Positions 2,232 through 9,769 of a stretch of DNA of 52,269 nt are shown in pieces. The stretch comes from Acidobacteriota bacterium. GTDB taxonomy: Bacteria; Acidobacteriota; DATKUA01; JAFGBY01. Numbering within the stretch: position 1 is the first letter of the stretch; each line of letters starts with the position of its first letter. Made by a program: the position numbers and the translations under genes. The notes below the pieces were generated by a model. That model was not told the DNA's origin, did no database searches, and saw only the letters and a program-made list of their open reading frames with translations. Location of the stretch: NCBI GenBank assembly GCA_016932915.1, contig JAFGBY010000112.1, positions 1 through 52,269 on the forward strand. The letters are read 5' to 3'.

Positions 2232-3536
2232 ATGACGGAAAAAAATGAAACGAAGCAGGAGTTCAAAGATATTACCTCTGTGCTGAAAGAGCTGTCTATC
2301 GCAGTACCGGTTTCAGAAACGAAAACGGAAGAAGAAAAGATAATCCAGACCTTATCAAAGTCTGTAAGTATAAAAGGTTTTCGTAAGGGTAAAGTACCTC
2401 TTGAACTTATTAAAAACAAATACAAACAAAACATAGAAGAAGAATTACTGGAGAAAATTATCCAGGATAAAGTAAAAAACTTCTTCGAAAAATCAGATTT
2501 GATGCCAATTTCAACACCAAGCGTAAAAGAATTGGATTATAGCCTGGGCAATCCACTCTCCTTCACAGTGGAGTTTGAGATCAGACCTGAGCTGGATATC
2601 CAGGGTTATAAAGATATAAAAGTCGATATTGAGAAAATTAAAGTTTCAAATAAAGAAGTTGATGAAGAAATTGAAAATCTCCGCAAGCGAGCCGCGCAAC
2701 TTGACCCCGTCGAGGGAAGAGGAGTTATTGCAGGTGATTTATTGACGATGAGCGGTACTTTCACGGAATCCCACGGTGACCACTCTCATACACATGAAAT
2801 CGGCAGAAGGAATTATCCTATGCCTGATCAGAAGAGTGAATTTTCCAATTTTGATAAACAAATTGAAGGAATGACCAAGGACGATGAAAAATCCTTCGAA
2901 ATTGAAGTCGATAATGAACGGCTTGGTAAGAGTCTTAAAGGTAAACATATCGAGTTCAATGTGAAAATCGAAGAAATACATACTGTCCAGCTTCCTGAAG
3001 TCGATGATGAATTCGCAAAAAGCCTTGGAGAATTCGAAGACCTGAAAACCCTGAAAGAAGAAATTAAAAACTCACTGATTGAACTAAAAAAATCGGAAGA
3101 ACGAAGAAAAGCGGGAGACACTCTTCTTGATAAAGTGATAGATAAAAACGAATTTGAGATCCCAAAGGCGTATATTGAGGATGAGATAAACAATATAATA
3201 AATTATAAAGCAACACAGCTTCTTAATATGGGTATCAATCTCAGGCATAACCCGATTGATTGGGAAAAAATGAGAGAAGATGTCCGCGAAGATGCTTCAA
3301 AAAACGTTGCGAGAATGATGACCTTGATTAATATTGCTGACAAAGAAGAGATCAAGGTAGATGAGAAGGAAGTCGAAGAGAAGGTAAAAGACATTGCTGA
3401 TCAACGAAAAGTCAGCAATACGAAATTACTTGCCGATTTTAAGAAATCTGGTGAGTATGACCGGATAAAGACCGATATTTTGTTTACTAAAACAGTTGAT
3501 TTTCTCTTTGAAATTAACCATATTAAAATTGGATAA
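2232..3536 (+). CDS. tig: Trigger factor (divergent FKBP domain with His-rich insert)
   Basis: Ribosome-binding signature GFRKGKVP; LPEVDDEFAK motif; position upstream of clpP-clpX. Confidence 0.92.
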   Translation: MTEKNETKQEFKDITSVLKELSIAVPVSETKTEEEKIIQTLSKSVSIKGFRKGKVPLELIKNKYKQNIEEELLEKIIQDKVKNFFEKSDLMPISTPSVKELDYSLGNPLSFTVEFEIRPELDIQGYKDIKVDIEKIKVSNKEVDEEIENLRKRAAQLDPVEGRGVIAGDLLTMSGTFTESHGDHSHTHEIGRRNYPMPDQKSEFSNFDKQIEGMTKDDEKSFEIEVDNERLGKSLKGKHIEFNVKIEEIHTVQLPEVDDEFAKSLGEFEDLKTLKEEIKNSLIELKKSEERRKAGDTLLDKVIDKNEFEIPKAYIEDEINNIINYKATQLLNMGINLRHNPIDWEKMREDVREDASKNVARMMTLINIADKEEIKVDEKEVEEKVKDIADQRKVSNTKLLADFKKSGEYDRIKTDILFTKTVDFLFEINHIKIG

Positions 3537-3541
3537 ATCTT

Positions 3542-4126
3542 ATGACTTTAGTTCCAATAGTTGTTGAAAATGACGGCAGAGCAGAGCGGTCCTACGATAT
3601 ATTTTCTAGGCTGTTAAAAGACCGTATAGTGATGCTTGGCGATGAGCTTGAAAGCAGACTGGCAAATCTTATTGTTGCCCAGATGTTGTATCTTGAAGCG
3701 GAAGATCCTGAAAAGGAGATCTCAATATATGTTAATTGTCCCGCTGGTGATATAAGCGCTGGATTAGCGATTTATGATACAATGAAACTGATTAAGCCTG
3801 ATATCCGTACATTATGTTATGGAGAGGCTTCCGAGATAGCTTCCCTAATTGTGGCAGCAGGAACAAAAGGAAAAAGATTTGCGCTTCCTCATTCAAGGTT
3901 TACAATGTATCAACCAACTGGAAAGCTAAATGGACAGGCAACCGATATAGATATCCAGGCAAGGGAGCTCATCAGGAGAAGGAACGAAATCATTAAAATA
4001 TTGTCAGAAAATACTAACCAGCCGATAGGTCAGTTAGAAGTCGATACGGAACGTCAGATGATAATGGATGCGCAAGCTGCGAAACAATACGGGCTGATTG
4101 ACGAAATATTGAAAGAAAGAAAATAA
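3542..4126 (+). CDS. clpP: ClpP-family subunit lacking the catalytic triad (ClpR-like, predicted inactive)
   Basis: LVPIVVE..GRAERSYDIFSRLLKDRI, AGLAIYDTM, GKRFALP, GQATDI and YGLID motifs; triad positions are E98/Y123/Q172 instead of S/H/D. Confidence 0.9.
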   Translation: MTLVPIVVENDGRAERSYDIFSRLLKDRIVMLGDELESRLANLIVAQMLYLEAEDPEKEISIYVNCPAGDISAGLAIYDTMKLIKPDIRTLCYGEASEIASLIVAAGTKGKRFALPHSRFTMYQPTGKLNGQATDIDIQARELIRRRNEIIKILSENTNQPIGQLEVDTERQMIMDAQAAKQYGLIDEILKERK

Positions 4127-4150: not shown

Positions 4151-5395
4151 ATGGTTAAGACAAACGAAGGATTTAACGCTCTTAAATGTTCTTTCTGTAA
4201 TAAAAGCCAGAAGGAAGTTAAGAAGCTTATCGCTGGACCGAATGTTTACATATGCGATGAGTGTGTAGAAATCTGCAATGAGATAATTACAGAAGAGCGT
4301 TTACAGGAAAAATCCAAAGCCAAACTTGGCATCCCAAAACCGGAAGAGATCAAAGAGTTCCTTGATAAGTATGTTGTTGGCCAGGAACAAGCAAAAAAGA
4401 AAATATCCGTCGCGGTTTATAATCATTATAAAAGAGTGGAATTTTATGATGAGAAAACAGATGACGTTGAGCTGAATAAAAGTAATATCCTTCTTATTGG
4501 GCCCACTGGAACGGGAAAAACTTTGATAGCAAGGACACTTGCAAAATGCCTGAAAGTCCCGTTTGCTATTGTGGATGCCACAACTCTTACAGAGGCTGGA
4601 TATGTCGGAGAGGATGTTGAGAATATAATCCTCAAACTTTTCCAGGCATCCGGGTTTGATCTCGAAAAAACCCAGAAGGGTATCATTTATATCGATGAAA
4701 TCGATAAAATCAGTAAAAAAGATGAGAATCCATCAATTACCCGCGATGTTTCAGGTGAAGGAGTTCAGCAAGCTCTGCTGAAAATACTTGAAGGTACTGT
4801 CGCTAATGTTCCTCCACAGGGAGGCAGAAAACATCCGCACCAGGAATTCTACCAGATAGATACTACTAATATTCTCTTTATTGGTGGTGGAGCTTTTATC
4901 GGACTTGATAAGATAATCAAGAAACGAATCGGCGCGCGGACTATGGGATTTAACTCTGAGAAAGAGGATATGAAAAGCATCGATGATATAGAAATCTTGA
5001 AGATGGCTGAACCTCAGGATCTAATCAGGTTCGGCTTGATACCGGAATTTGTCGGGCGGTTGCCCATCATCGGCACACTTGAAAACCTCAGCCGTGAAGC
5101 GCTGCTTACGATTCTGTCTAAACCAAAGAATGCGCTCATCAAACAGTACCAGAAGCTCTTTGATTTTGAAGGAGTGAAGTTGAATTTTTCTGAAGATGCC
5201 CTTGAGGAAATAACAGCCCTCGCGCTTGAAAGGAAAATCGGCGCTAGGGGATTAAGGGCCATCATGGAAGATTTCATGCTTGATATCATGTATGATTTAC
5301 CTTCTCAGAACGATATTAAGGAATGTGTGATTGATAAAGACGTAGTAAAGAAGGCAAAGGAGCCGATGATTGTCCGCGAGAAAAAAGCGGGCTAA
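4151..5395 (+). CDS. clpX: ATP-dependent Clp protease ATP-binding subunit ClpX
   Basis: Zn finger CSFC...ICDEC; Walker A GPTGTGKT; pore loop GYVG; IDEIDK; RKH loop; MGF ClpP-docking loop. Confidence 0.98.
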
Positions 5396-5437
5396 TCCTT
5401 GCAGAAATTTCACTAGCAGCATTTGAACAAGGATACT

Positions 5438-7837
5438 ATGATGTCAGAGAAAACCGAAATATATCAAAATTTACCGCTCCTGCCTATGCGGGACCTGGTA
5501 ATTTTTCCAAATATGATGATTCCTTTTTTTGTAGGAAGGGATAAATCTATCAAAGCCCTGGACTACGCACTTGAAAAAGACCAGAAAATCTTCTTAGCCA
5601 CTCAGAAAGATGCGCTGGTTAATGAGCCGGAAAAAGAAGATATTTACCTCATTGGTGTAGTCTCAAAAATTATTCAAAGTTTAAAAATGCCCAATGGGAA
5701 CATTAAAGTCCTTATTGAAGGTTTACACAGGGCAAAGATTATAGATTTTATAGACCAGAACGATTATCTGGAAGTTGTTACGGAAAAGCTAACTCCCAGG
5801 CCTGAGCTCTCGGATGTTCCTTCTCATCTTACTCGTGATGTCACCGAGAAACTGGAGCAATACTTAAGGCTAAGCCAGAATATTAATTCCGATGTGTTTG
5901 TTTCCACTTTAAAAGAGACTAACCCGGATAAGCTTGCGGATTCCATCGCTGCTCACTTAAATATTGAAATCAAACAGAAACAAGAACTTCTGGAAACGGT
6001 CAATCCTAAACTTCGTATGACCAAACTCCAGACGATTCTCGATATTGAAATCGAAAAGGTGATGCTGGACGAGAAGATCAACGAGGAAGTCAAAAAGCAG
6101 ATGGAAAAAGCTCAGCGGGAGTATTACCTGAATGAAAAGATAAAAGCTATCCATAAAGAACTAGGCAGGACGAAAGAAAAGGTTGATGAGATTGACCAGC
6201 TGAGGGAGAAGATAGATGAAAGCGGTATGCCCGATAAGGTCAAGGAAAAGGCAGAACAGGAACTTGAAAAGCTGGAATCCATGCCTCCGATGTCTGCAGA
6301 AGCAACAGTTTCAAGAGGTTACCTTGATTGGCTGATCTCAATGCCATGGAATAAAAGGTCTCGCGAGAAACGGGATCTTATTAAAGCGGAAAAGATATTA
6401 AACGATGATCATTATGCCCTCGAAAAACCGAAGGAGAGAATTCTTGAATTCCTGGCCGTTCGGCAGCTTGTAAAGAAACAGAAAGGTTCAATACTCTGTT
6501 TTGTCGGGGCTCCCGGTGTTGGTAAAACATCGCTCGCAAGTTCGATTGCCAGAGCCACAGGCAGAAAATTCGTACGGCTTTCTCTAGGAGGAGTCCGCGA
6601 TGAAGCTGAGATACGCGGCCACAGGAGAACATATATAGGTGCGTTCCCTGGCAGGATTATACAGATGATCAAACGTGCAGAAACCAAGAATCCCGTTTTC
6701 CTTTTGGATGAAGTTGATAAAATGAGCACGGATTTCCGTGGAGACCCGTCTTCAGCCCTGTTGGAAGTACTGGATCCGGAACAAAATCATTCCTTCCTGG
6801 ATCATTACCTGGATGTTGAATTTGATTTGTCGGAGGTAATGTTCATTGCTACCGCGAACGTTCTGCACCCGATACCAAGGGCTTTACAGGACAGGATGGA
6901 AGTTATCCATCTTTCCGGTTATACCTTAGCGGAAAAGATTGAAATAGCAGAACGGCACTTGATTTCAAAGCAGTTAAAAGAACACGGCCTTCATAAAAAG
7001 AAAATCGTTTTCACACGTGAAGCGATTAAATATATCATTGAGAAATATACACGCGAGGCGGGGGTTAGAAACCTCGAGCGGTCTATTGCTTCCCTGTTAA
7101 GGAAGATGGCTCGCCAGTATGTTACTAAGAGCATTAAAAAGACTGTAAAACTGACACCGGAGAAAATAGAGGAATATCTGGGTATTCCGAAATATCGAAA
7201 AGCCGAAAAGGAACAAAAGGCAGAAGTTGGGCTCGTTATGGGTGTTGCTTGGACCGAAATGGGTGGGGAATTGCTTGCGACAGAATGTACATTGATGCCG
7301 GGGAAAAGCAACCTGAAGCTTACAGGCCAGCTTGGAGACGTTATGCAGGAATCTGCGCAAGCTGCTATGAGCTATGTCCGTTCCAATTCACTGCAATTTG
7401 GTATCCCGTATGATATCTTTAAAAAGAATGATGTCCATATTCACGTTCCTGAAGGAGCAATCCCAAAAGATGGTCCATCAGCAGGGATTACTATGGCGAC
7501 TGCATTGGTATCCGCATTTACCAGGGTGCCTGTAAGACACGATATAGCCATGACGGGGGAAATCACTCTGCGAGGAAAAGTACTTCCTATTGGTGGATTA
7601 AAAGAAAAAGTCCTTGCGGCTCACAGGGCAGGGATCATGGAGATAATTATCCCCGCTGAGAATGAAAAAAATATCGAGGATATACCGCCAGAGATTTTAA
7701 AAGAGATAAAACTTCATAAGGTTGAAAACGTCAACGAGGTGATTAAGCTTGCCCTGACCGAGGAATTAAAGCCTATTCAAGATGTGAAAAAACTGGATCA
7801 TGATGACAACAATGTAACAGATGGAATAGCGCATTAA
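5438..7837 (+). CDS. lon: Lon (La) endopeptidase
   Basis: Walker A GAPGVGKT; LLDEVDK; catalytic PKDGPSAG and GGLKEK; start probably ATG 5438/5441 after AAGGA (ORF track uses TTG 5423). Confidence 0.97.
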
Positions 7838-7910: not shown

Positions 7911-8498
7911 ATGTTGGACTTACACAATTACAGATACTGGGGAAGTGCTCGTTCACAGGATGATTGGCCGAAAGACGGCCTAGTGGAAGTTGGAGTTGTT
8001 GGTAGATCCAATGTTGGCAAATCCAGCCTAATAAATATGCTGCTTGGTTCCAAAAAGGCTGCACGAACAAGCAGTAATCCCGGGAAGACACGATCCTTAA
8101 ATTTCTATTTAATTGATAATAAGTTTTACCTGGTAGATTTTCCAGGGTATGGATATGCTAAGGTATCTAAGTCCGAAAGGGTGGAATGGAAAAAAGCCAT
8201 CGAACAATACCTGACTGGCAGCCGCTATTTGAAAAAAGTGCTATTGTTGGTTGATGCACGCCACGAACCGTTTAAAACAGATGTTGAAATGAAACAATGG
8301 TTTGATGAGTTCAATATTCCGGTTCTCGTGGTCGCTACTAAGTCTGATAAATTGTCAAAAAATAAACTTGCCCGGATTTGGTCAAAGAATCTTGGCAGTT
8401 TTTCGCTGAATAAATTACAGCAAATTTGTTTTTTTTCATCTATAAACGGCGAAGGAAAAAGCCGTGTAATAAAAGAAATTGAAGAAGTACTAGGTTAA
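7911..8498 (+). CDS. yihA: Ribosome biogenesis GTP-binding protein YihA/EngB
   Basis: [26 protein letters not shown]; typical position after lon. Confidence 0.95.
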
Positions 8499-8512
8499 AG
8501 GAGAGTTGCTTT

Positions 8513-9769
8513 ATGAATATTTCAGAGCTGAAAGAAAAGAGCGTACCGGAACTCATCCAGATTGCGCATGAACTTGAAGTAGAAGGCGCAGCCGGAATGA
8601 AAGTTTCCGAGCTTATTTTCAGTATTCTTCAAGCACAAACGGAAAGAAACGGACTGATTTTTGCCGAAGGCGTTCTGGAAGTTTTACCAGATGGATTCGG
8701 ATTCCTCCGCGCGCCCGATTATAATTATCTGCCCAGCCCCGATGATATATATGTTTCACCGTCTCAGATCAGGCGGTTCGAATTGCGTACCGGGGATACC
8801 GTTTCGGGCCAGGTTAGGCCGCCGAAGGAAGGTGAACGTTATTTTGCCCTAATCAAACTGGAAGCCGTTAATTTTGCTCCAGTTGAAGAACTTAAAAACA
8901 GAATTTTCTTTGATAACCTCACCCCGCTTTACCCGGATGAGAGAATCGTCATGGAAACGAAGGATCCGAAAAATATTTCGGGCCGTGTCCTTGACCTGCT
9001 GACTCCTATCGGAAAGGGGCAGAGGGGTATGATCGTTGCGCAGCCGTATACCGGTAAAACTACGCTGCTTCAATGTATCGCAAATAGTGTAACTATAAAT
9101 AATCCTGAGGTTTATCTCATCGTTCTGCTGATCGATGAGCGCCCGGAAGAAGTTACCGATATGCTTCGTTCCGTTAAAGGCGAGGTTATCAGCTCGACAT
9201 TTGACGAACCTGCTTCAAGGCATGTGCAGGTTGCGGAAATTGTTCTCGAAAAAGCGAAACGCCTTGTCGAGCATAAAAAGGATGTCGTCATCCTGCTCGA
9301 TTCCATCACCCGTCTCGCAAGAGCTTATAACACCATTCAGCCGCCCAGTGGAAAGGTACTTTCCGGTGGTCTCGATGCTAATGCCCTTCAGAGGCCAAAA
9401 AGATTTTTCGGTTCAGCCCGTAATATCGAGGGTGGTGGCAGCCTTACAATTATTGCGACTGCTCTTATCGATACAGGCAGCAGGATGGATGATGTTATTT
9501 TTGAGGAATTCAAAGGTACCGGTAACATGGAAATTACTCTCACACGTAAGTTGATGGAGAAGAGAGTATTCCCGGCAATCGATATTGCCCCATCAGCGAC
9601 GAGGAAAGAGGAACTTCTTGTACCGGAAAAAGAACTTAACAGGATCAGGATTCTGCGTAAGGTGCTCCACCCGATGTCCAGTGTGGAAGCGATGGAGCTT
9701 CTTATTGATAAATTGTCTCAGACAAAGTCAAATGGCGAATTCCTTGAATCTATGAGTAAAAGCCGTTAA
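8513..9769 (+). CDS. rho: Transcription termination factor Rho
   Basis: [49 protein letters not shown]; SD AAGGAG. Confidence 0.98.

Follow-up and report, generated by a model that had tools for sequence, protein, structure and literature searches.

The stretch of DNA analysed here (the window; 52,269 nucleotides of contig JAFGBY010000112.1, assembly GCA_016932915.1, from an uncultured sediment bacterium of the Acidobacteriota) contains a full-length gene of the ClpP family between the genes encoding trigger factor and ClpX. The gene and its product are referred to below as clpP* and ClpP*. It was found that all three residues of the catalytic Ser-His-Asp triad are replaced in ClpP*, and the product is therefore predicted to be a catalytically dead ClpP. 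The same replacements occur throughout a clade of related proteins, and the gene is clearly under purifying selection. Our preferred reading, to which we give nearly an even chance, is that ClpP* would be a non-cutting docking ring whose partner, an active ClpP encoded elsewhere, has so far escaped detection. The gene and the three replaced codons are located as follows:

3542..4126, + strand: clpP*, 194 aa plus stop codon, a full-length ClpP-family gene with Ser/His/Asp changed to Glu/Tyr/Gln
3833..3835, + strand: GAG, Glu98 in place of the nucleophile Ser; codon read directly; Glu in 23/23 sequences of the clade, Ser in 105/105 canonical ClpPs
3908..3910, + strand: TAT, Tyr123 in place of His; codon read directly; Tyr in 23/23 sequences of the clade, His in 105/105 canonical ClpPs
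4055..4057, + strand: CAG, Gln172 in place of Asp; codon read directly; Gln in 23/23 sequences of the clade, Asp in 105/105 canonical ClpPs

ClpP* was attributed to the ClpP family on the basis of its match to the Pfam profile PF00574 (CLP_protease), which scored 231.8 bits against a curated cut-off of 20.2 and covered positions 2–181 of 182. Distinct PDB sequences matching ClpP* at E ≤ 0.001 numbered 110. The alignments with solved ClpP chains were free of gaps, the top match being 6mx2_A (E 1.5e-69; residues 1–193 on 1–193). The chain 3qwd_A, which we take to be S. aureus ClpP, aligned from 1–190 to 1–190 and is the basis of the S. aureus numbering used here. In four solved-chain alignments, GEASEIA of ClpP* stood opposite G[MQ]AASMG in the column of E98, TMYQP stood opposite [MI]IHQP in the column of Y123, and TERQ stood opposite T[ED]RD in the column of Q172. 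Thus, the Ser-His-Asp triad that marks an active ClpP peptidase (MEROPS S14) is absent from ClpP*. The protein also scored below the cut-off of the NCBIfam clpP equivalog model TIGR00493 (259.8 vs 308.6 bits, with 346.6 for the canonical control P0016), and above that of the broader subfamily model NF001368 (267 vs 249).

An earlier note on this DNA, made from the sequence alone, had described a full-length open reading frame (ORF) that aligns to canonical ClpP without gaps and in which the triad is changed to E98, Y123 and Q172 by the codons GAG, TAT and CAG. Both statements were borne out by the codon reading and the solved-chain alignments, and the LVP loop, RLLKDRI, Y63 and E170-R171, which it listed as retained, were all found in ClpP*. 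Its further claim that YINSPGG is altered to YVNCPAG is true of the window protein and of a twin that is 98% identical to it, but most other members of the clade retain YINSPGG. Modeling of ClpP* using AlphaFold2 led to unusable models, with a mean predicted local distance difference test (pLDDT) score of 42.5 for a 23-row alignment and 52.2 for a 128-row alignment, probably due to alignments of close relatives only. The ClpP fold was assigned because of sequence identity to solved ClpPs, and not from the predicted models.

A search of 5.8 billion proteins with ClpP*, in which the best 120 of 8000 scored matches were listed, revealed one match at 98% identity and 14 at 71–76%, followed by canonical ClpPs at no more than 61%. 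A clade alignment of 23 sequences (71–98% identical) was built from the search matches and members of their protein clusters. E98, Y123 and Q172 are invariant in all 23, and the 105 closest canonical ClpPs among the same best 120 of 8000 all carry S/H/D. Since 100 of the 193 columns of the clade alignment are invariant, three given sites would all be invariant by chance with a probability of about 0.14, and the invariance is weak evidence that these exact residues matter.

A profile search of a library of 1.84 billion proteins (top score 280 bits) revealed no E/Y/Q triad among the 150 best representatives, and the dead clade had no representative of its own among them. About ten of these 150 carry other altered triads, and some of them resemble broken sequences. 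P0224, P0197, P0203, P0186 and P0201, with the triads G/R/D, G/H/D, A/H/D and S/R/D, suggest that there may be further, unrelated dead ClpPs, while the odd rows P0190 and P0222 look frameshifted.

The neighbourhood of the gene is conserved along with its altered triad. A scan of metagenome contigs gave 595 matching stretches and 90 relatives, of which 80 were kept, and five clade loci were among them. The order tig-clpP*-clpX is present in 5/5 of these separately assembled loci, and lon-engB-rho follows in the four that reach further. Identity to the window counterparts across the loci is 72–75% for ClpP*, 81–83% for ClpX, about 79.5% for Lon, 89% for Rho, 55% for EngB and 36–45% for Tig. The ratio of nonsynonymous to synonymous substitution rates (dN/dS) was estimated by the Nei-Gojobori method for the three pairs among three closely related loci with unsaturated synonymous sites. 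It was 0.054–0.124 for clpP*, 0.011–0.026 for clpX, 0.027–0.045 for rho and 0.096–0.260 for engB in the same pairs, so that clpP* is about fivefold less constrained than clpX, and engB is under a comparable constraint. Because of these low values, clpP* is clearly under purifying selection. The comparison of orthologs at tig-clpX loci that the earlier note had proposed therefore came out in its favour: E98, Y123 and Q172 are conserved, and relatives with S/H/D at these positions were not seen in the clade.

These data also bear on the explanation that the altered triad is an artefact of assembly or sequencing, or that clpP* is a recent pseudogene drifting neutrally, which we consider very improbable. 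In its favour, the exact window sequence was found only in the probable source run, whose contig is identical to it, with no other letters at a depth of 8.77, and is not independent. However, the same E/Y/Q residues are present in 23 protein clusters of several sources and in the five separately assembled loci, the frame is open and full-length at every clade locus examined, and a dN/dS of 0.05–0.12 does not fit neutral decay. Run X2 covered only the end of tig and one conserved stretch, and two metatranscriptome runs from the same study as the probable source run gave no match. A genome-contig scan for more genomes of the clade returned, among the matches listed, canonical ClpPs only (best 59% identical), and in 400 genomes of the same phylum the best ClpP was 58% identical. 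The counts of class-relative and phylum genomes include the unpublished G026, G049 and G151, and no conclusion depends on them.

To describe what changed together with the triad, a position was called clade-typical when the residue of the 23 clade sequences is found in at most 5% of the 105 canonical ones. There are 21 such positions: 17, 31 (F to M), 35, 83 (Y to L), 89, 93 (M to Y), 95 (Q to E), 98, 99 (M to I), 120 (I to F), 122, 123, 128 (G to K), 143, 157, 162, 164, 167, 172, 174 (F to I) and 175. Twelve of them lie no more than five residues away from a member of the triad, in a zone that comprises 33 of the 193 positions (p = 9e-6), and when the triad itself is excluded this still holds for 9 of 18, in a zone of 30 of 190 positions (p = 3.5e-4). 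The mean column conservation of the active-site segments is 0.91–0.94 in the clade vs 0.76–0.92 in canonical ClpPs. Because the substitutions cluster at the triad and the segments are as conserved as the canonical ones, the old active site was evidently rebuilt and then held fixed, with no sign of drift in the sequences compared.

The surfaces through which ClpP contacts its partners are largely retained. The clade majority agrees with the canonical residue at 24 of the first 30 positions (the axial-loop region), Y63 and the oxyanion-hole residue G69 are invariant in all 128 aligned sequences (23 clade and 105 canonical), and the ring-sensor residues E/D170-R171 are kept in the clade. Three pocket aromatics bind the ATPases in E. 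coli ClpP (PMC9765437). The corresponding ATPase-pocket positions of ClpP* are S61, Y63 and L83, with Leu83 in 23/23 clade sequences, and F31 is Met in the clade. The groove residues E95, E98, K128, Y123 and Q172 may mimic an occupied active site and in this way hold the ring extended and competent for assembly.

Such a rebuilt pocket could alternatively have been re-tooled for hydrolysis without serine, for example if Glu98, next to the oxyanion-hole glycine, activated water with the aid of Tyr123, Gln172 and Lys128, which is new and invariant in the clade. ClpP shares its fold and oxyanion hole with the crotonases, whose catalytic base is Glu, and glutamic peptidases use a Glu/Gln pair. The fixation of E98, Y123, Q172, K128, E95 and Y93 in the clade, the concentration of clade-typical substitutions near the triad with or without the triad itself, and the invariance of G69 are in line with this idea. 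Nevertheless, we consider it improbable: more than half of the clade columns are invariant anyway, so that the fixation of the three sites may be due to chance, the geometry cannot be checked on two low-confidence models, and we know of no precedent in the ClpP family for a re-tooled non-serine active site.

To evaluate the origin of ClpP*, the genome of the window (G000) was compared with other genomes of the phylum. Its order is represented by this genome alone in the comparison, and the nearest genomes are G001–G003 of the same class. All three have the arrangement tig-clpP-clpX(-lon-engB) with an S/H/D ClpP that is 50.5–51.5% identical to ClpP*, and they carry two or three ClpP paralogs each, all with S/H/D. 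The accessory paralogs are of two types, one just downstream of gltX and the other beside a divergent 815-residue Hsp100. A maximum-likelihood tree of 95 rows was built from 20 clade, 10 class-relative, 35 canonical and 30 phylum-genome ClpPs (one of the latter from the unpublished G026); it was a quick IQ-TREE run supported by the Shimodaira–Hasegawa-like approximate likelihood ratio test (SH-aLRT) only, and its backbone is poorly resolved. The dead sequences formed one monophyletic clade (SH-aLRT 100) with a stem length of 0.79 changes per column. This clade fell among the housekeeping ClpPs and was separate from the two clades of accessory paralogs. By its tig/clpX locus and its grouping in the tree, clpP* occupies the position orthologous to the canonical housekeeping ClpP of the class relatives.

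Because the clade is monophyletic on a long stem inside the housekeeping group and apart from the accessory clades, the sequences indicate a single origin of the dead form from the tig/clpX-linked housekeeping ClpP, in a burst of change followed by conservation. The ClpP/ClpR phylogeny proposed in the earlier note was thus obtained in part, with a single origin among the housekeeping ClpPs of the phylum in a tree that held no ClpR sequences. Judging from this placement and from the gene context, ClpP* probably arose independently and is probably no member of the cyanobacterial ClpR clade by descent.

Next to clpP*, the following features of the conserved operon were found:

2232..3536, + strand: tig (trigger factor), 5 bases upstream of clpP*, syntenic in 5/5 clade loci
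4151..5395, + strand: clpX; its product has the zinc finger, the pore loop GYVG, the RKH loop and the docking tripeptide MGF
4943..4951, + strand: codons of the ClpX MGF tripeptide (residues 265–267, ClpP-docking loop), by sequence reading
5423..7837, + strand: lon, with all four of the four Lon domains detected
7911..9769, + strand: engB and rho, with which the conserved gene order ends downstream

The listed ORF of lon opens with a TTG codon (5423, + strand). Its alignments to the clade loci begin at residue 7, and translation may actually start a few codons downstream. The trigger factor (2232–3536, + strand) matched Trigger_N, Trigger_C and the tig equivalog model, and an FKBP-type peptidyl-prolyl isomerase domain was not detected in it even at E ≤ 1. 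Its gene is the fastest-evolving one of the operon (36–45% identity across the clade loci vs 81–83% for ClpX), and the middle domain of the protein may be degenerate. Upstream of tig and in the opposite orientation, at 63–1982 on the − strand of the window, a PpiD/SurA-like periplasmic chaperone of 639 residues (SurA_N and PPIC rotamase domains) is encoded, which also neighbours tig in the clade locus L228 (45% identity).

The MGF docking loop that the earlier note had reported in the neighbouring ClpX was confirmed, and the tripeptide reads LGF in the clade loci L224, L226, L227 and L228 and IGF in the class relative G001. Taken together with the 23/23 E/Y/Q residues, the synteny, the dN/dS values and the single origin, these retained docking loops support the proposal of the earlier note that ClpP* is a selected pseudo-protease with an intact scaffold.

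Among the AAA_2 proteins of G000, ClpB-like, ClpC-like, ClpX and HslU proteins were found, and HslU and HslV (contig C4) as well as Lon are present. The ClpC-like Hsp100 (810 residues; contig C91, 74081–76510, − strand) is flanked by a lolD-like gene for an ATP-binding cassette ATPase and by bamA. After its second SNIG motif it carries LGF, presumably at the place of the ClpP-docking loop, and it would, besides ClpX, be another ATPase capable of docking on ClpP*. The adaptors ClpS and SspB were not found in G000, an incomplete genome, and both families are patchy (controls were positive in 5 and 2 of 14 genomes). A transfer-messenger RNA (tmRNA) gene is located on contig C140 (7765–8120), and its tag, ANSNELALAA, has the canonical ALAA ending despite the dead ClpP. 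This ending is a ClpX degron.

As a ClpP homologue that lacks the triad and is kept by selection, ClpP* is a predicted ClpR-type non-catalytic subunit in terms of functional class. The earlier note had placed such subunits mainly in cyanobacteria, plastids and apicoplasts, which proved to be too narrow: triad-less paralogs are also reported in Actinoplanes (ClpP3) and Streptomyces (SCO7280, SGR6291 and Sven0839), and its authors read them as ClpR-type (PMC13689560). In Synechococcus, ClpR is part of mixed ClpP3/ClpR rings that work with ClpC, beside a separate active ClpP1/P2 (PMC13689560). Here, in contrast, it is the housekeeping gene between tig and clpX that has lost its triad. In the tree, ClpP* falls among the housekeeping ClpPs of the phylum to which it belongs, and it is 55–61% identical to canonical ClpPs without gaps. 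The actinomycete proteins also differ from it, since the genomes that encode them have four or five ClpPs and they are additional copies, and ClpP3 of Actinoplanes has no pocket aromatics and a disordered N-terminus (PMC13689560), whereas ClpP* is the housekeeping ClpP, with the N-terminal region and Y63 retained.

With canonical ClpP of E. coli and S. aureus, ClpP* shares its length, its fold by sequence and its position in the tig-clpX operon, but it has no Ser/His/Asp and falls below the clpP equivalog cut-off. ClpP1 of Listeria has Asn for Asp172, depends on a partner ring of ClpP2 and regains activity in the hetero-complex (PMC9765437); only one triad residue is altered there, vs all three in ClpP*. 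A functional likeness would be that to the actinobacterial ClpP2. In M. tuberculosis only the activity of ClpP1 is essential, and ClpP2, whose activity is dispensable, "scaffolds chaperone binding" (PMC9067928); in Streptomyces, ClpP1 cuts and ClpP2 docks all the ATPases, namely ClpX, ClpC1 and ClpC2 (PMC9765437). ClpP2 thus docks ClpX and ClpC while its own cutting is dispensable (PMC9067928; PMC9765437), and ClpP* would dock in the same way. The first pocket position is occupied by a small residue in both proteins, S94 in ClpP2 of Streptomyces (PMC9765437) and S61 in ClpP*, and ClpP* keeps Tyr at the second (Y63). However, ClpP2 of M. tuberculosis and Streptomyces has the canonical Ser-His-Asp and is encoded next to clpP1, whereas in ClpP* the triad is gone, there is no neighbouring clpP, and the third pocket aromatic is replaced by Leu83.

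The preferred docking ring is proposed to work as follows. ClpP* would form a heptameric ring on which ClpX and ClpC would dock, and unfolded chains would pass through this ring uncut. It would be the chaperone-docking ring of a two-ring barrel, stacked on a ring of active ClpP, and the latter would be the cutting ring, formed by a paralog encoded in the approximately 24% of the genome that is unassembled. Such an arrangement would be the end point of a function known from ClpP1P2 of Mycobacterium and Streptomyces, in which cutting by one of the two rings is enough. The retained axial-loop region, the invariant Y63, and the MGF or LGF tripeptides of ClpX and ClpC speak for docking. A paralog could have taken over the cutting because G001–G003 carry two or three S/H/D paralogs each. 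Three points were counted for a partner: about a quarter of G000 is unseen, the tmRNA tag ends in ALAA, and known triad-less ClpPs accompany active ones. In the papers examined, all of them sit beside active ClpPs (PMC7966870; PMC13689560).

The results of the search for a partner weigh against this reading. G000, the only available genome of its lineage, consists of 178 contigs and is 75.55% complete, and all statements of absence rest on this one incomplete genome. PF00574 matched only the window gene in G000 (one match, two candidates scored). A hidden Markov model search at maximum sensitivity, run over 23,856 stop-to-stop frames of at least 40 aa, gave one real match, and tblastn with 10 paralog queries at E ≤ 1 returned the window locus and two chance-level matches. 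The genome-wide search for a second clpP with an intact triad, as proposed in the earlier note, thus found a single ClpP by three methods. Nor was a second ClpP found in the 52-kb window or in the stretches of 8–20 kb that surround the five clade loci. The gltX-linked paralog is located 0.06–2 kb downstream of gltX in all three class relatives. In G000, gltX-trmH is intact in the middle of a 57.5-kb contig; an acidic ORF of 98 residues and unrelated genes come next, and no ClpP is among them. Because the locus lies mid-contig, the paralog is truly missing from this site and not lost in a gap. The ORF itself (contig C170, 16427–16720, + strand) is very acidic and has no similarity to ClpP.

The module with the Hsp100-linked paralog that is present in G001 and G003 likewise has no counterpart in G000. 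In the loci L304 (G001, contig C53, 5081–8141) and L309 (G003, contig C15), the paralog is directly downstream of the divergent 815-residue Hsp100, which is only 38% identical to ClpC of G000, and the module was not seen in G002. The Hsp100-linked ClpP of these two loci is possibly a dedicated second Clp protease.

The same results speak for another reading, in which the lineage has no active ClpP at all and ClpX and ClpC dock on a chamber unable to cut. ClpP* would then be a regulated unfolding or holding cage, or a ring that acts as an allosteric partner of the ATPases, and bulk proteolysis would be left to Lon, HslUV and others. It is consistent with the single ClpP-family gene found by three methods, with the absence of the gltX-linked paralog from an intact syntenic site and of the Hsp100-linked module, and with the presence of HslU, HslV and Lon. 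The remodelled segments are as conserved in the clade as in canonical ClpPs, which suggests a separate role for the new pocket, and the size estimate of the genome, 2.33 Mb at 75.55% completeness, is smaller than the 3.5–3.9 Mb of the class relatives. Even so, we regard it as somewhat less likely than the paired docking ring, though a serious possibility. At this completeness a single gene has about a one-in-four chance of being unassembled, and the evidence of absence comes from one genome. The retained [I/L/M]GF loops and the ALAA-ending tag are more simply explained by continued degradation, and no such system was found described in open-access papers and preprints.

The paired docking ring, the sole dead ClpP and the re-tooled site were ranked in this order because a strong prior for a partner was set against a roughly fourfold penalty for none having been seen. 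A wider statement is that the lineage would have no serine-active ClpP and that ClpP* would be its sole chamber on which ClpX and ClpC can dock, either as an unfolding or holding cage that hands proteins on uncut or as a Glu/Tyr/Gln/Lys pocket of new chemistry; this is a serious possibility, though clearly short of an even chance.

ClpP paralogs without a triad have already been published from bacteria other than cyanobacteria (PMC13689560). Open-access papers and preprints were searched for a dead housekeeping ClpP and for a dead ClpP as the sole one, and neither was found described. What appears to be new here is that the dead copy is the housekeeping clpX-linked gene, that all three residues are changed to fixed E/Y/Q in a rebuilt and conserved pocket, and that no active copy is visible in G000. 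The dead housekeeping ClpP has stayed under selection across relatives that share only 71–76% identity. If a partner exists, ClpP* would be the natural end point of the asymmetry in which one ring docks and one ring cuts, shown by mutagenesis in Mycobacterium and Streptomyces, and a ready system for learning what a docking ring must keep. If there is no partner, ClpX and ClpC would use a chamber without serine cutting, and roles of the Clp ATPases that are independent of ClpP could be tested in a natural system; a lineage truly without a serine-active ClpP would have a Clp machine of an undescribed kind. The conserved pocket (E95, E98, I99, Y93, F120, Y123, K128, Q172 and I174) would be a natural experiment on the coupling between the occupancy of the active site and the conformation of the ring.

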